A stretch of DNA of 64,000 bases, from positions 32,001-96,000 of the forward strand of contig CAXWPL010000005.1 of NCBI GenBank assembly GCA_963666215.2. Direction: 5' to 3'. Below the pieces are notes generated by a model, which was not told the origin of the DNA, made no database searches, and worked only from the letters and a program-made list of their open reading frames with translations. Origin of the DNA: Acidobacteriota bacterium (GTDB lineage Bacteria; Acidobacteriota; UBA890; WLXD01). Position numbers and translations under genes: made by a program. Below are positions 25,277 through 45,335 of the stretch, piece after piece. Within the stretch, counting starts at the first letter, position 1. Each line of letters begins with the position of its first letter.

Positions 25277-26723
25277 GGGGATGTCACAGGCTCCGTTGAA
25301 AAAGGGTGACGGTGATCCGACCTCGATAGTGTGTCGGGGTCAATCCACTGGCATGGAGGATCACCGTCATGAGCAAGAGTCGCAGAACAGAGACAAGTAG
25401 GAAAGCGGAGCGCCAAGAGAACCCGCTCCTGGAGGCAGTGGTAGCGGCGCGATCGGATCTACGAGCGCTGGTCATGGACGCGGGCTTCGGGGTGTTGGGT
25501 TCGCTGCTGGAAGAAGACCGGGCGGAGCTCTGCGGAGAGCGCTACGCGCGGTCACAGCAGCGGCGGGCGTACCGACACGGCTACGACGAGGGCTCGCTGG
25601 TGATGGGCGGCCGGCGGGTCAAGGTACGCAAGCCGCGGGCTCGACACGGCTACGAGAGGGCTCGCGTCAAGGTCAAGCCGCGGGCTCGGATGGCCAAGAG
25701 CTGCCGCTGCCGCACTGGGAGAGGTTCAAGGCAACAGATCCGCTCGAAGAGCGCGCCGTAGAGCAGATCCTGTGCGGCGTCACGACGCGCAAGTACGAGC
25801 GCTCGTTAGAGCGGCTCGACGACGGGCGAGCTTCGTCGGGAACGAGTCGCTCGAGTGTGTCGCGGCGGTTCGTAGCGCGTACAGCCAAGCAGGTGCAGCA
25901 GTACCTGGCCCAACCGCTCAATGAAGTGGACCTGCCGGTGCTGGTGATCGACGGCACGCACATGGGCAAGCACTTGTTGGTGATCGCCATGGGCATCGAC
26001 GCGGACGGCGTCAAGCATGTGCTGGGTGTCGTAGAGGGCACCACGGAGAGCTCCCACGTGTGCCGGTCGCTGCTGCGGCAGTTGATCGAGCGCGGCATGC
26101 CCGTCGAACGGGCGCGGTTGGTGGTAATCGATGGCTCCAAGGGCCTCCGTAAAGCAGTGCGCGACACGTTCGGCGAGTGGGCCCTGATCCAGCGCTGCCG
26201 TGTCCACAAGATCAAGAATGTATTGGAGCATCTGCCAGGGCATATCCGGCCCTGGTTCGCAGCCAAGATCCGCAAGGCGTGGAAGGCGGAGACGGCCACG
26301 GCAGCGACCAAGCAGCTCGACGCCGTGGTCAAGGAGCTGGAGACCGATCACCCCGGTGCAGCGGCCTCGCTCAGAGAAGGAATGCAAGAGACGCTCACCG
26401 TCACTCGGCTCCGAGTTCAGGGGCCGCTGCTTCGGACGTTACGTTCAACGAATACGATCGAGAACCTGAACGGGACGATCAAACACGTCAGCCGCAACGT
26501 AAAGCGGTGGCGCTCCGGGAGCATGATCGTTCGATGGGCGGTTACTGCACTCATCGAGGCCGAGAGCAAGTTCCGGAGGGTTCGTGGCTACCGCGACATC
26601 GCCAAGCTCGATGCCGTACTCAACACCGCCGTCGACGTTCCCCTTGAGCAGGAGCGCCGTACTGCGTAACAATCCCCAACCACTTCACCGTCGCCTTAGT
26701 TCAACGGACGGTGGGACATCCCC
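25277..26723 (+). mobile_element. IS256-family element, copy A (transposase 25369-26669 frameshifted)
   Basis: IRs GGGGATGTCACAGGCTCCGTTGAA / TTCAACGGACGGTGGGACATCCCC; 8-bp TSD TTGCAAAG (25269-25276, 26724-26731); net +38 bp versus copy B at ~25644-25690. Confidence 0.93.
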
Positions 26724-39727: not shown

Positions 39728-40641
39728 TGGCAAGAAGCCTGGCTCGCTGGACCGTGTGGGCGACCGCAGTCACCATGGTCGGGGCGCTCTGCAGCCCCGA
39801 GACAGCAATGGCGCAGCAACAGTCCGTCGGGGTCGAAGTGAAGGTCCAAGGCAGCATCAACGACAACTTCTTCCAATCGCCCGACGACGACGCGCCGACC
39901 GAGGTACGCGCTCTCCGTGTCGAAGCGCGTGCCTTGTTCAAGCCCGTCGCCAGGGGAGCGGTGACCTTCGTGCTCGGCGGTGGTGGTACGGGATACGAGG
40001 GAGATACTCTCACTGCGACTTCGATCTTCGGCAGTTTCGTAGTCAATAGTCGCGCGCATGATCTCACGGCGACGGTAGGGCGCGAACAAGATCGGTTGAT
40101 CTTCGATGTCGGCGATGGCGTCGGCACTGCCGACATCTTGTTCGTGGTTGCAGACTACGGCGTACGTGTTCCGGGTGGCTTCGAGCTCAAGGCCCGGCTC
40201 ACGCTGCAGTCTCAAAGCTTCGAAACACCCGAGCACGACAACACGCTGATCGGCGTCGGGTCCGCGCTTCGCTTTCATGGGTTCGGCAGATCCTTTTCGC
40301 CTGAAATCGGCGTGTTGTTCGGAGGACGCTCGGCCACCGATCGCGGGGACGATCACGATCAGACCGATTACTACGTCAAGGTGCGTTCGGCTCCGACCGC
40401 CGGCATCTACATGAGCTTCCGCTACCGACACCGTTTGAGGGAGTACTCGATCACGGACTCGCTGGATCGGAACTTCGGCCGCGAGGACTCGCGCGATCAG
40501 TTCACCGCTCTCGCGGTGTTCCCGGCCAACAAACCACTCGCTGCGACGGCCTACTTCGCGCGACAGGACGCGACGTCCACTCTCCCGACTCGGACGTTCG
40601 AGACCACCGTGCTCACCCTGGGGCTCCGCGTGCGGTTCTGA
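39724..40641 (+). CDS. Putative outer-membrane beta-barrel protein (EPS export-associated)
   Basis: Signal peptide (AMA-Q), alternating beta-strand pattern, C-terminal LGLRVRF. Confidence 0.65.
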   Translation: MMARSLARWTVWATAVTMVGALCSPETAMAQQQSVGVEVKVQGSINDNFFQSPDDDAPTEVRALRVEARALFKPVARGAVTFVLGGGGTGYEGDTLTATSIFGSFVVNSRAHDLTATVGREQDRLIFDVGDGVGTADILFVVADYGVRVPGGFELKARLTLQSQSFETPEHDNTLIGVGSALRFHGFGRSFSPEIGVLFGGRSATDRGDDHDQTDYYVKVRSAPTAGIYMSFRYRHRLREYSITDSLDRNFGREDSRDQFTALAVFPANKPLAATAYFARQDATSTLPTRTFETTVLTLGLRVRF

Positions 40642-40670
40642 AGGAAACCGTAGAACGGGCACTGAAGCTC

Positions 40671-41759
40671 CTATAGATCGCAAGCGGGGGAGAGAGATTC
40701 TTCCGTGTCGCGTGGTGGTGGGAGGAGGTTGTAGACCTCGCGGGCAACGTAGCGCTTGAGGCAGCGGATGATTTCCTTCTTGGAGAGGCCTTCGGTGGTG
40801 CGGCGCTCCACGTAAGCGATGGTTGGCACGTGCCATCGCATCCGGACGATCACAGCGCGGTAGAGGGCGGTATTGGCCTGCCGGTTTCCCCCTCGGTTGA
40901 GCCGATGGCGGCCGCCGGTCTTGCCGGATCCGGCCGGTATTGGGCAGACGCCACAGAGCTTGGCGAAGGCCGCTTCGGAGCGGATCCGGTCGGTGTTGTC
41001 GCCGGCAGTCACGAGGAGCTCGCCGGCGATATCGGGCCCGATCCCGAACGCGTCGAGCAGGCGGGGTGCAGTCGCGGTAGTGAGTTTCTCCAGGCGTTTG
41101 GTGTGGGTCTTGATCTCCTCGTGCAGATCAAGCCACCGTCGGGCGAGCGAGCAGAGCACGTGACGCATCGTCACGTTGGGATCAGCCGGGTCCCCGTCGC
41201 CGTCGAGCCCGACACAGGTCGTCATCAGCTTATGGTCGCTGAGCGGTTCCAGCTTCGCTCGCAACTCATCGGAGGCCGTCACCAACGTCGCCTTGAGCGT
41301 CACGATCGCCTGGGTATGGGCTTTCACGGCAGTGTTGCGGGCGATCCGGGTGAGGCGGATCGCCTCAACGGCACCGTCGGAGACCTTGGGAGTTGCCGTG
41401 GCCTGCCCGGCCAGGACCTGACGGGCTGCATGTTCGGCGTCGATCGGATCGCTCTTACCGGCGAGGCGGCGTTGCCCTGCTCGAGGTGGCCGACTGACCT
41501 CGATCACTGTCTGTGCGTGGCGCCGCAAGAACCTGGCAAGGCCCATTCCGTAGCTGCCGGTCCCCTCCACCCCGAAGACGTGGACACGACCCAAGGTCTT
41601 GGCCCACGCCAACAGCCCCGCGTAGCCGCTGTTTGTGACCGAGAGGTAGTACTCGCCGAGACGGCCACCAAGGCCGTCAATCACGACGGCGACGTGTTCG
41701 TCCTTGTGAGTGTCGACACCGACGATGACATCGGTGCGCTCGAGTGCGATGCTGGACAT
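40671..41759 (-). CDS. IS110-family DEDD recombinase/transposase, intact
   Basis: GVDTHK, GVEGTG, KSDPIDA (DEDD), PAGSGK serine, RLNRGGNRQAN; AGGAGG RBS. Confidence 0.95.
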   Translation of the reverse strand: MSSIALERTDVIVGVDTHKDEHVAVVIDGLGGRLGEYYLSVTNSGYAGLLAWAKTLGRVHVFGVEGTGSYGMGLARFLRRHAQTVIEVSRPPRAGQRRLAGKSDPIDAEHAARQVLAGQATATPKVSDGAVEAIRLTRIARNTAVKAHTQAIVTLKATLVTASDELRAKLEPLSDHKLMTTCVGLDGDGDPADPNVTMRHVLCSLARRWLDLHEEIKTHTKRLEKLTTATAPRLLDAFGIGPDIAGELLVTAGDNTDRIRSEAAFAKLCGVCPIPAGSGKTGGRHRLNRGGNRQANTALYRAVIVRMRWHVPTIAYVERRTTEGLSKKEIIRCLKRYVAREVYNLLPPPRDTEESLSPACDL

Positions 41760-41935
41760 GGCTGTTGGCCTCCTTCACGGGTCAATGGTCCAGCTCGTCG
41801 GTCGGGCGGCCAGGACAAGACTGTGATGGGACCTGTTCAGATCAGGCTCCTATGAGGTCACTGCCCGTCCGGCTGGCGAGCAGCCTGATCGGTGCGCCAC
41901 CCCAGCCGACCGACAGGTCAGTGCAAGGACACCAC

Positions 41936-43344
41936 GGGGATGTCCCACCGTCCGTTGAACTAAGGCGACGGTGAAGTGGTTGGGGATTGTTACGCAGTAC
42001 GGCGCTCCTGCTCAAGGTGAGCGTCGACGGCGGCGTTCAGTGCGGCATCGAGCTTGGCGATGTCGCGGTAGCCACGGACCCTCCGGAAGTGGCTCTCGGC
42101 CTCGATGAGCGCGGTAACCGCCCATCGAACGATCATGCTCCCGGAGCGCCATCTCTTTACGTTGCGGCTGACGTGTTTGATCGTGCCGTTGAGATTCTCG
42201 ATCGTGTTCGTTGAACGCAACGTTCGAAGCAGCGGCCCCTGCACTCCGAGCCGGGTGACGGTGAGCGTCTCTTGCATTCCTTCTCTGAGCGAGGCCGCGG
42301 CACCCGGGTGATCCGTCTCCAGCTCTTTGGCCACGGCGTCGAGCTGCTTGGTCGCTGCCGCTGCCGTCTCCGCCTTCCAGGCCTTGCGGATCTTCGCCGC
42401 GAACCAGGGCCGGATATGCCCTGGCAGATGTTCCAAGACGTTCTTGATCTTGTGGACACGGCAGCGCTGGATCAGGGCCCACTCGCCGAACGTGTCGCGC
42501 ACTGCTTTACGGAGGCCCTTGGAGCCATCGATTACCACCAACCGCGCCCGTTCGACGGGCATGCCGCGTTCAATCAACTGCCGCAGCAGCGATCGGCACA
42601 CACGTGAACTCTCGGTGGTGCCTTCTACGACGCCCAGAACATGCTTGACGCCGTCCGTATCGATGCCCATGGCGATCACCAACAGGTGCTTGCCCATGTG
42701 CGTACCGTCGATCACCAGCACCGGCAAGTCCACCTCGTTGAGTGGTTGGGCCAGGTACTGCTGCACCTGCCGGGCGGTACGCGCTACGAACCGCCGCGAC
42801 ACACTCGAGCGACTCGTCCCGGATGAAGTTCGGCCTTCGGGCAGCTGCTCCAACGAGCGCTCATACTTGCGCGTCGTGACGCCGCACAGGATCTGCTCCA
42901 CGGCGCGCTCTTCGAGCGGGTCGGTGGCCTTGAACCTCTCCCAGTGCGGCAGCGGCAGCTCTTGGCCATCGACGCTCCGAGCCCGCGGCTTGCGTACCTT
43001 GACCCGCCGGCCGCCCATCACCAGCGAGCCCTCGTCGTAGCCGTGTCGGTACGCCCGCCGCTGCTGTGACCGTGCGTGGCGTTCTCCGCATAGCTCAGCT
43101 CTGTCTTCTTCCAGCAGCGAACCCAACACCCCGAAGCCCGCGTCCATGACCAGCGCTCGTAGATCCGATCGCGCCGCTACCACTGCCTCCAGGAGCGGGT
43201 TCTCTTGGCGCTCCGCTTTCCTACTTGTCTCTGTTCTGCGACTCTTGCTCATGACGGTGATCCTCCATGCCAGTGGATTGACCCCGACACACTATCGAGG
43301 TCGGATCACCGTCACCCTTTTTCAACGGAGCCTGTGACATCCCC
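41936..43344 (-). mobile_element. IS256-family element, copy B, intact
   Basis: Same IRs as copy A; 8-bp TSD GACACCAC (41928-41935, 43345-43352). Confidence 0.95.
41990..43252 (-). CDS. IS256-family transposase
   Basis: LVIDG, VIDGSKGL, QRCRVHK, STNTIENLN. Confidence 0.93.
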   Translation of the reverse strand: MSKSRRTETSRKAERQENPLLEAVVAARSDLRALVMDAGFGVLGSLLEEDRAELCGERHARSQQRRAYRHGYDEGSLVMGGRRVKVRKPRARSVDGQELPLPHWERFKATDPLEERAVEQILCGVTTRKYERSLEQLPEGRTSSGTSRSSVSRRFVARTARQVQQYLAQPLNEVDLPVLVIDGTHMGKHLLVIAMGIDTDGVKHVLGVVEGTTESSRVCRSLLRQLIERGMPVERARLVVIDGSKGLRKAVRDTFGEWALIQRCRVHKIKNVLEHLPGHIRPWFAAKIRKAWKAETAAAATKQLDAVAKELETDHPGAAASLREGMQETLTVTRLGVQGPLLRTLRSTNTIENLNGTIKHVSRNVKRWRSGSMIVRWAVTALIEAESHFRRVRGYRDIAKLDAALNAAVDAHLEQERRTA

Positions 43345-43465
43345 GACACCACGGTCGGTCAACTTATCGGTCAGGCCGACCGGAGCAGCGCCCCAGCATC
43401 ATCACAGTCAACTTAACTTTCCGAACCTTGTCCCCGGGCAATCTTGCTTCGAGGCAGACCGCTCT

Positions 43466-44164
43466 TCAAGGGGTGGTGGCCACCTGCCAATCCATCAACG
43501 ATCGGGTACGCAGCAGTCGGTAGTGTGCTGCTCGCAAGCGGTGTCGTCCGAGTCGGAAGAGGTTGAGGATGACACCTTGCACAGCCAAAAACTGTTGAGC
43601 TTGCGACGCTGACTTGAATCTCCGCATCTGGCGTTCTCGTTGTCGAGTGGGCTGGTGCGAGGCCTCGCATCGGTTGTTCGCGTAGCGCGCAGTGACATGC
43701 TCGACCGAAGGCATCACGACATGGTGCGCGGCCCCATAACTTCTGAGCTTGTCGGTAATCAACCATCGGGGTGCACTCCCCTGCCCTTTCAGCAACTTGC
43801 GGAAGAAGCGCTTGGCCGCGCGAGCGCTACGTCGCCGCTGGACCAAGATATCGATCACATCTCCGTCCTGGTCGACCGCTCGCCACAGGTAGTGGCGCCG
43901 GCCGCGGATCCTCACGAAGACCTCGTCCAGGAACCAAGTGTCACCCAGACGACCTTGCCGCCGCCGTAGCTTGCGAGCGTAGTCAGGGCCGAACTTCGCA
44001 CACCACCGTCGAATCGTCTCGTAGGTGACCTCGACTCCGCGCTCGGCTAGGAGATCTTCCACGTCTCGGAAGCTCAGGCAGAACCGGTGGTAGAGCCAGA
44101 CGGAGTGGCTGATGATCTCGATCGGGAAACGGTGTCTGCGATATCGGCTGACGGCGTTGCTCAT
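43466..44164 (-). CDS. IS6-family transposase
   Basis: YRRHRFP, WFLDE, YLWRAVDQDG, ITDKLRSY, NNRCEASHQP. Confidence 0.95.
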   Translation of the reverse strand: MSNAVSRYRRHRFPIEIISHSVWLYHRFCLSFRDVEDLLAERGVEVTYETIRRWCAKFGPDYARKLRRRQGRLGDTWFLDEVFVRIRGRRHYLWRAVDQDGDVIDILVQRRRSARAAKRFFRKLLKGQGSAPRWLITDKLRSYGAAHHVVMPSVEHVTARYANNRCEASHQPTRQRERQMRRFKSASQAQQFLAVQGVILNLFRLGRHRLRAAHYRLLRTRSLMDWQVATTP

Positions 44165-44204
44165 GGCCGTACTCTGTCAGCAGCGCCTTTAAGTTGACAG
44201 TGCC

Positions 44205-44413
44205 CCTCGAACGGCCCCCGTCGGCAGCTTCCCATCCCCGCTCGATGTCGGCGACGATCGCTCCAGGGCAGCGGGATCCATGGGCGCCGCGGACGACGCT
44301 TCCTCGTCAGGGATAGGTACCGCCTGACACGCCGCCGCTGCGATCATCGCCAACCCGAGCAACGATCCAGCGAGGTCTCTTGGCTTCACGCTCATTCCCA
44401 CCATCTCCTTCAT
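44205..44413 (-). pseudogene. 5' remnant of a lipoprotein gene truncated at the IS6 end
   Basis: Lipobox-like LAMIAAAAC; an adjacent frame reads IVADIERGWEAADG (NTF2-like by my reading) and stops at the IS6 IR. Confidence 0.4.
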
Positions 44414-44603
44414 GGTCCCCGGGTTGTCCAGAGCAGGCGGCCCATTCGACGGGCAAGTTCGCGCCTCACCCAAGCTATCAGAGCCGTGCGACGTCGCCCA
44501 CGGAGCGGCACACGGCGTGCGTACCTTGAAAGAGGACGTCGCCGGAGCTGGTGCTTTCGAGACAAACGCATCGACGATCGCACACCCGGTCGGTGACCCA
44601 CGG

Positions 44604-44798
44604 CTACCCGAAATGGCCCACGAGACGAGGACCCCGTGCCGTGGCCACCCGCAGGGGCAGCTTGCGCCACAGTCCGATCGCAAGCCGGTAGCGCGAATTG
44701 TCTGGAGAGATTCGAGGCAGCTCGGATCCCTTGGCCACGCGGTAGCGGTAGCGTGCCGGTTCGGGGTCGAAGCCGAAGCGACGTTTGAAGTGGTAGGC
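44604..44798 (-). pseudogene. 3' remnant of a FemAB-related (PEP-CTERM/EPS-associated) gene
   Basis: AYHFKRRFGFDPEP..ISPDNSRYRLAIGLWRKLPLRVATARGPRLVGHFG*; begins exactly at an IS256 end. Confidence 0.7.
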
Positions 44799-44819
44799 GG
44801 GGATGTCACACCGTCCGTT
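44799..44819. mobile_element. Isolated IS256 terminal IR remnant
   Basis: GGGGATGTCACACCGTCCGTT matches the copy B end at 41936 (GGGGATGTCCCACCGTCCGTT) at 20/21. Confidence 0.8.
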
Positions 44820-45335
44820 CTTGGCCTCGGAAGTCTTGGCGGGGTCGTCGCCGAGCGGCTCAGCGCCCTCGGCGTGAACGTGCTCGGCCTGTGCCGCAGC
44901 GGTAAGCCGCGCCCGCACGTTTCGCGCGTTTTTTCGCCGGACAACTGGCGCAGCATGCTTCCCTTGTGCGACGCACTGGTGCTCACCACGCCGCTGACAC
45001 CCCAGACCCACGGCATGCTCGACGCCGCGGCGCTCGCCGCACTCCCAGCGGGAGCGGTGTTGGTGAACGTCGCTCGCGGCGAGTTGGTTGACGAGCGTGC
45101 TCTGCTCGAGAGTGTTCGCCAGGGGCGCCTGCGCGCCGCCGTACTCGACGTCTTCGACCGCGAGCCCCTACCAGCAGACAGCCCGCTTTGGACCGAACCG
45201 CGGATCTGGGTGACGCCTCACGTGGCCGCCCCGAGCGAGGTCGATCTAGTGGCCGACGAGTTCGCCATCAACTACAGCCGGTTCATCGATGGCGCGCCGC
45301 TCGTAAATCTCGTCGACAGAGAGCGCGGCTACTAG
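44817..45335 (+). pseudogene. 5'-truncated D-2-hydroxyacid dehydrogenase (NAD-binding part)
   Basis: VLGLGSLG, PLTPQT, LVNVARG, LDVF, TPHVA; N-terminal domain missing. Confidence 0.8.

Follow-up and report, generated by a model that had tools for sequence, protein, structure and literature searches.

What becomes of an RNA-guided transposon if another insertion sequence (IS) lands within the gene of its guide RNA? The question is posed by positions 40657-44205 of a 64,000-nucleotide stretch of an Acidobacteriota genome (assembly GCA_963666215.2, contig CAXWPL010000005.1; the whole stretch is referred to as the window). Here an IS6-family element has its left inverted repeat split by an IS110-group element, and this element itself holds an IS256-family copy. 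It is very probable that the locus is a three-level nest in which IS256 splits the IS110 bridge RNA's target-binding loop, and that the IS110 copy should no longer move by itself. The structural part of this reading is shown by the anatomy of the locus, the duplication flanking IS256, the matches between guides and target, a covariation-backed fold, an uninterrupted homologous form, and both IS256 junctions in independent runs. The event is an ordinary one, of the IS-in-IS-in-IS kind, and most likely disabled a new member of the bridge-RNA IS110 group; the known mechanism is left unchanged by these findings.

Anatomy of the nest

Three transposase genes, of the IS110, Mutator/IS256 and IS6 types, are found in the nest, all on the minus strand. 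The innermost element (41936-43344, minus strand) is 1,409 bp long. Its transposase gene (41990-43252), co-oriented with the other two, encodes a Mutator-type protein of 420 aa (PF00872, E 1.5e-45), and its terminal inverted repeats are imperfect (arms 41935-41974 and 43306-43345, 40 nt, 80% complementary). It is flanked by two exact copies of the 8-bp target-site duplication GACACCAC, at 41928-41935 and 43345-43352, to which no strand is assigned. The Mutator-type DDE transposase, the length, the imperfect repeats and the 8-bp duplication are those of the IS256 family, whose members usually measure about 1.3-1.5 kb and duplicate 8-9 bp.

The IS256 copy and its duplication lie precisely between the left target guide (LTG; 43358-43366, minus strand, TAAGTTGAC) and the right target guide (RTG; 41919-41924, minus strand, GCACTG), as a sequence-only reading of this DNA had proposed; the interval 41919-43366, to which it had assigned the interruption, runs from the first base of the RTG (as listed) to the last base of the LTG. 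Read as RNA, the 8 nt of the duplication (GUGGUGUC) make up the loop and the 3' arm of a small distal hairpin (GACC-GUG-G(U)GUC). On the LTG side the hairpin (43345-43356, minus strand) is complete and reaches exactly to the IS256 boundary; loop and 3' arm are present once more before the RTG. The suggestion that the duplication is the small inner hairpin separating the guides is thus correct for 8 of its 12 nt (loop and 3' arm).

The IS110-group element extends from 40665 to 43406 on the minus strand, plus one shared core C (position 40664 or 43407), and would be about 1,326 bp long without IS256. These limits follow from the two halves of the IS6 repeat, which stand 2.7 kb apart. No target duplication is present at the IS110 junctions. 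The right end, or left donor (40665-40674, minus strand, ATAGGAGCTT), overlaps the stop codon, and the ends of the relatives read ATAGGAGC(A/T)T; the start of the left end, or right donor (43399-43407, minus strand, C-TGTGATGA), is the reverse complement of the right donor guide (RDG, see below), and homology to relatives starts at this point. The recombinase gene (40671-41759, minus strand) is intact. Its 362-aa product matches PF01548 (DEDD, RuvC-like domain) and PF02371 (Tnp domain with the catalytic Ser) with 64.4 and 61.8 bits, above the cut-offs, and contains D16, E65, D104, D107 and S278, which are kept in 20-22 of 22 aligned proteins. Similarity to the IS621 transposase (8wt6) is weak (E 5.5e-6); the catalytic positions align with the IS621 motifs, which suggests that these five residues correspond to the IS621 catalytic numbering. 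The full-length reading frame and the presence of the donor-loop guides agree with the earlier view that recombinase and donor loop had stayed intact. A DEDD + Ser recombinase, a long left end with a two-loop RNA, and guides fitting target flanks and element ends place the element in the IS110 group.

The outermost element encodes a DDE_Tnp_IS240 transposase (PF13610; 43466-44164, minus strand), measures about 806 bp without the nest and has 17-nt repeats, as found in the IS6 family. The outer 8 bp of its left inverted repeat (GGGCACTG; 40657-40664, plus strand) are cut off by IS110 from the rest of the element (43408-44205, minus strand), which begins with TCAACTTAAC. Rejoined, the two parts equal, over 17 nt, the intact right repeat at 44189-44205 (reverse complement GGGCACTGTCAACTTAA). 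IS26-like repeats start with GGCACTG. An 8-bp IS6 target duplication was not found, as the flanks 40649-40656 and 44206-44213 differ (CGTAGAAC vs CTCGAACG). Such a difference is common for IS6 after cointegrate resolution or recombination, so that membership in the IS6 family is unaffected.

Taking into account that the IS110 guides spell the IS6 repeat and that the IS256 duplication lies inside IS110 sequence, the parsimonious order of arrival is IS6, IS110, IS256; that this order can be read from the DNA had also been claimed before. The IS6-family element would have come first. The IS110-group element would then have entered its left inverted repeat, which the bridge-RNA target guides spell exactly, and finally a member of the abundant IS256 family of this genome would have inserted into the IS110 left end, at the distal hairpin of the target-binding loop, duplicating GACACCAC. 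The IS6 element would be crippled by its split repeat. In the IS110 element recombinase and donor loop are intact, but 1,417 bp now lie between the LTG with the 5' strand of the basal stem on one side and, on the other, the RTG with the 3' strand, followed by donor-binding loop and recombinase gene.

Guides, fold and uninterrupted relatives of the bridge RNA

Guides were assigned by the rule of Durrant et al. 2024 (PMC11208160), under which the LTG repeats left flank and core in the same sense and the RTG is the complement of core and right flank. The left donor guide (LDG) and the RDG were sought by applying the same rule to the element's own ends. The LTG is identical to the left flank plus the first core base at 9 of 9 positions, and all 6 positions of the RTG are complementary to the CAGTGC in the IS6 repeat, the next base, A, being the handshake. 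In the donor-binding loop (guides at 41819-41853, minus strand) the LDG ATAGGAGC(CT) occupies 41853-41846 and the RDG CATCACAG 41828-41821, followed by the handshake TC, to 41819; both were assigned by matches to the IS110 ends, and their positions are conserved in 21 relatives. The A that follows the RTG can pair with the T in which the right end terminates, and the TC that follows the RDG with the GA ending the left flank. Both agree with the handshake of IS621, which uses the bases after RTG and RDG (PMC11208160; Hiraizumi et al. 2024, PMC11208158).

The relatives came from a scan of genome contigs that gave 410 relatives, with 79 loci kept. Loci L020-L044 plus L087 (55-72% protein identity) were used. 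Left aside among them were L022, whose 5' part did not align, L032 for its short flank, L041, which is cut, and two loci, L031 and L037, that duplicate L030 and L036; loci L045-L098, which are multi-copy and more distant, lay outside the comparison. The protein of L042 aligned poorly (29%), but its left end aligned. The uninterrupted left ends of these 21 relatives are collinear with the two pieces of the window element across the break: in L024 the pieces ending at 43353 and starting at 41935 abut to the base, and removal of IS256 with one copy of the repeat restores collinearity. A profile of the 21 left ends, run against the genome, found 41937-41786 (profile 53-199, E 4e-33) and 43396-43345 (profile 11-62, E 0.0014), two pieces that overlap by the duplication and abut at the repeat; the next match had an E of 0.69.

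The alignment of the 21 left ends folds into two stem-closed loops. Covariation was tested on a specified bridge-RNA-like structure with 500 shuffles, five measures and slid controls. In the specified fold 95.9% of cells were paired, compared with 85.2% in the shuffles and 31-52% in the slid controls; 19 pairs had compensatory changes, and none of the 500 shuffles reached any of the five measures. The basal stem of the target loop (5' strand 43370-43391, 3' strand 41894-41914, both on the minus strand), which is defined by the consensus fold and covariation, showed compensatory change in 17 of 23 pairs. The distal hairpins were paired in 100% and 98.8% of cells; the first figure is that of the target-loop hairpin, where the middle one of four pairs is A-U in 13 relatives and G-C in 8. 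The donor-loop basal stem GGGCAG/CUGUCC is conserved, with compensatory change in 0 of 6 pairs, and the predicted donor-loop part of the fold rests on conservation and guide matches.

Two features proposed by RNAalifold were not retained. Pairs between the LTG and RTG columns (52-54 with 78-80) never co-vary and are an artefact of the conserved guides, and a donor-loop stem running through the LDG (155-158 with 198-201) was replaced by the conserved stem. A search of the left end against Rfam, both here and in the intact relative L024, gave no family, only matches at chance level (E 0.3-0.4).

In the uninterrupted relatives the guides occupy the same positions as in the window element and read TG(Y)TA(Y)GAC (LTG) and GCGTTG (RTG, against CAACGC). 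Among the 17 loci whose left end was located, the flanks of 14 translate into ...GDSYD/NALAES... (slash, insertion point). Seven left flanks were scanned, and in 6 of them the gene encodes an HTH_21 + rve (IS3-type) transposase that is entered at position 100-102 of the 102 in the rve profile. Of the 15 relatives whose right junction was located, 10 have an RTG that is complementary to the right flank throughout; 4-9 of the 9 LTG positions match the flank, in addition to wobbles. The guides of the window element fit the IS3-type site at only 4 of 9 (LTG) and 4 of 6 (RTG) positions, in contrast to their complete fit to the IS6 repeat. Guides thus co-vary with flanks, those of the window element following the IS6 repeat and those of the relatives the IS3-type gene, which lends independent support to the guide assignment. 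Since the window guides fit the IS6 repeat and fit the site of the relatives poorly, the target loop has been naturally rewritten with the donor guides unchanged. This IS110 clade homes to other insertion sequences, the relatives to IS3-type transposase genes and the window element to an IS6 repeat.

Two contigs (L115 and L116) of one metagenome, detected by scanning for exact matches to 29 nt from the LTG side, carry the same retargeted loop without IS256 and with a single GACACCAC. They read contiguously ...GCAAGGACACCAC-GGTCGGTCAAC..., with ...AAGGACACCAC-GGTCGG... in the region of the break, and in the pieces flanking it their identity to the window is 96-100%. The search for forms lacking IS256, which the sequence-only reading had recommended, was successful with respect to the uninterrupted loop; a joint skipping IS256 (an empty site) was absent from the contigs of four runs, in which rare variants are dropped, so that its absence does not argue against occasional excision. 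In both contigs (L115:1585-1838 and L116:1216-1346) the RTG is GCATTG instead of GCACTG. Both are remnants: L116 retains a solo piece of the left end, its first ~135 nt, behind the stop codon of a gene, and L115 is devoid of the start of the stem and of the whole donor loop. DNA searches for the element gave only partial matches in 60 relatives (a 92% copy ended by the contig end in G013, short pieces elsewhere) and no match in 10 genomes of the same family.

Mobility of the interrupted element and competing explanations

In IS621 the target loop is built of a stem, the LTG, a stem loop and the RTG, a single loop held by one recombinase dimer, and the Tnp domains read conserved bases of the stem loop and of the linker that precedes the RTG (PMC11208158). 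Both loops are needed for insertion and likewise for excision (PMC13626964). Because LTG and RTG are 1,417 bp apart in the window element, and IS621 uses one continuous loop for both steps, insertion and excision of the interrupted IS110 should both be blocked, which would mean a loss of mobility. The earlier statement that this copy cannot retarget in cis would follow from the same IS621 work.

Rescue by a bridge RNA supplied in trans, which the sequence-only reading had envisaged, has no visible source. The element is single-copy in the genome by DNA, by protein and by left-end profile, and the profile found no other bridge RNA of this clade in the assembly, which is 92% complete. Two other genes with PF01548, the domain of IS110-family recombinases, are present (G000 C5:1579507-1579929 and C5:1320316-1320735; open frames of 416 and 419 aa); they are distant, as both fell short of E 0.001 in a search with the window recombinase.

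The IS110 element is single-copy although 4 exact cognate targets are free, which speaks for a block caused by IS256 but could also reflect recent arrival or naturally low activity. The targets (TAAGTTGACAGTGC, 14 nt) are all empty and all lie in IS6-type repeats: one in the right repeat at the other end of the same IS6 (44190-44203, plus strand), and the others at G000 C2:760907, C4:599777 and C4:963255. Other observations weigh against such a block. In a model of the natural 1,647-nt read-through transcript, the outer 10 pairs of the basal stem form across IS256 with a probability of 0.94-0.98; in a separate two-piece model the co-folded pieces reach -104.6 kcal/mol, about 11 kcal/mol better than the -19.5 plus -73.9 kcal/mol of the pieces apart. 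In IS622 the donor loop alone supports donor-donor recombination (10.1101/2025.05.14.653916). Moreover, the contigs that confirm the junctions (see below) extend 28 nt into IS256 on each side, less than the 31 nt required for bridging, and no single record spans the whole nest.

One alternative, which we regard as quite improbable, is that IS110 was inactive, or inactive in this host, before IS256 arrived, so that the insertion hit a neutral site and explains nothing of the copy number. Random insertions in dead DNA are to be expected in a genome as rich in IS elements as this one, with its 38 IS256 matches, and IS621 excision is inefficient, the bridge RNA being weakly expressed from integrated copies (PMC13626964). 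The element, however, shows no decay: the reading frame is full-length, the catalytic positions are kept, the four guides fit perfectly and the stems are intact.

It is still more doubtful that the split guide RNA continues to work, with a read-through transcript or two separate RNAs rebuilding the target loop by means of the 21-bp basal stem. IS256 would then be a giant insert beside the distal hairpin, and the co-orientation of all three elements would permit a single transcript. The folding energies described above are compatible with this, and bridge RNAs of IS622 tolerate a split between the two loops (preprint 10.1101/2025.05.14.653916). Against it, the inner 8+3 stem pairs, which are next to the guides, form with a probability of only 0.11-0.22, and a translated 1.4-kb mRNA would sit within the loop. 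In IS621 the recombinase reads conserved bases in the stem loop and in the linker that leads to the RTG (PMC11208158); in the window element these two are no longer continuous. The published splits fall between the loops and none within the target loop, and the IS110 element is still single-copy despite its four free targets.

As thermodynamic models let the halves of the basal stem pair across IS256, some residual activity of the interrupted IS110 may be considered, but we assign it a very low probability. An equally slim chance is given to a natural split target loop, in which pairing of the 21-bp stem would rejoin the halves and some RNA-guided activity would persist, with the rare loss of IS256 acting as an on-switch. 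This idea derives from the position of IS256 just 3' of the distal hairpin and from the co-orientation of the three elements. One half would consist of the LTG and the 5' stem strand, the other of the RTG, the 3' stem strand, the donor loop and the recombinase mRNA. If it were true, the IS256 insertion would be no dead end, and loss through the 8-bp repeat would switch IS110 on.

The nest as assembled is supported by short-read contigs of runs X1, X2 and X5 (three studies on record), which cover 40400-41963 and 43317-43805 (X2, 43317-44116) with 0 differences and reproduce the IS6/IS110 junctions plus 28 nt of each IS256 end; contig depth is 5-10 outside IS256 and about 100-300 inside. Contigs of run X9 (seawater) stop at 41822 and restart at 43408 and are uninformative on the IS256 junctions. 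An assembly artefact in which IS256 was mis-joined between repeat copies can practically be dismissed. Mis-joins are possible with about 38 IS256 copies and with no record that covers the element from end to end, but IS256 stands between exact 8-bp repeats, both junctions are free of differences in contigs of three runs, and its flanks are halves of a single conserved RNA gene.

Comparison with known systems and further observations

The reading of a nest that disables the IS110 element can be set against IS621 and the other bridge-RNA elements of the IS110 group (PMC11208160; PMC11208158). Shared features are a DEDD + Ser recombinase, a two-loop RNA encoded upstream of the gene in a long left end, an LTG with the sense of the left flank, an RTG complementary to the right flank, LDG and RDG matching the ends, and handshake bases. 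The spacing between LTG and RTG, in the uninterrupted form, is 16 nt compared with 18 nt in IS621. Unlike IS621, the window element has no 5' stem loop before the target loop, its LDG matches the donor with two DNA bases looped out, its target is another IS and not a REP sequence, and its RNA gene is broken by IS256. The core is CT/CT in IS621; here the left junction has CT and the right one CA, only the first base, C, being common, and 15 of 16 relatives also have CA on the right. Over the core the LTG reads CC, the partner of the RTG is CA and that of the RDG is CT.

A possible further likeness to IS621 is a -35-like TTG in the right end facing a -10-like GATGAT in the left end, comparable to the junction promoter. 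The TTG lies 13-14 nt from the right-end tip in 14 of 15 relatives (TTGAC[AG] in 9) and is part of TTGCGA in the window element, and the left end carries GA(T/G)(G/C)AT; this arrangement would fit an IS621-like junction promoter of circles. For the integrated state, scans of 40500-44400 found 0 promoter-like sites (0.5 in shuffles) and 1 terminator-like site (1.9 in shuffles), numbers that are uninformative in DNA this rich in G+C. The RNA-labelled runs X15-X20 hold 0.05-0.23 of words.

Homing to the terminal repeat of another transposable element, which is crippled by it, is shared with an IS110-family member aimed at a Tn3-family repeat; that member belongs to another group and has its guide RNA in the right end, whereas the victim in the window is an IS6 repeat. 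The engineered split bridge RNAs of IS622 (10.1101/2025.05.14.653916) are similar in that the RNA need not be one molecule, but they part the target loop from the donor loop, whereas the break in the window is inside the target loop, between its guides.

Staphylococcal IS256 reportedly excises precisely (ica). It resembles the window copy in its Mutator-type transposase, length of ~1.4 kb, imperfect terminal repeats and an 8-bp duplication able to template precise loss. The window copy is only a family relative, in a host of a different phylum, and the contigs of the four runs gave no sign of its excision.

The locus is a clean natural example of the probable silencing of an RNA-guided transposon by a single insertion between the target guides, with enzyme and donor loop untouched. 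Together with the cognate 14-bp target, the interrupted form and its uninterrupted counterpart in the metagenome contigs make a trio for probing how continuous the target loop must be.

The genome as a whole contains 38 matches to the IS256 element, including 19 end-to-end copies. Perfect 8-bp duplications are kept by 5 of the 19, the window copy included, so that such a duplication is a signature of the family in this genome. That only 5 of 19 are perfect, together with flanking 8-mers that recur next to different IS256 copies (GTTATGCG, CGGCTGCC and CCCGTGGG), points to rearrangement by recombination between copies. A further IS256 copy is located in the window at about 25277-26723.

Among the IS110 relatives, the recombinase frames, read from the aligned start codon to the first stop, are 351-371 aa long in 20 of 21; that of L044 is open for only 281 aa. 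The nest is flanked on one side by a glycosyltransferase cluster and on the other by a truncated-looking gene for a 2-hydroxyacid dehydrogenase (44412-45335, beside IS6). In this reading frame the N-terminal part is without a match, only positions 40-178 of the NAD-binding-domain profile being matched, from residue 135, and the gene may be truncated or rearranged.

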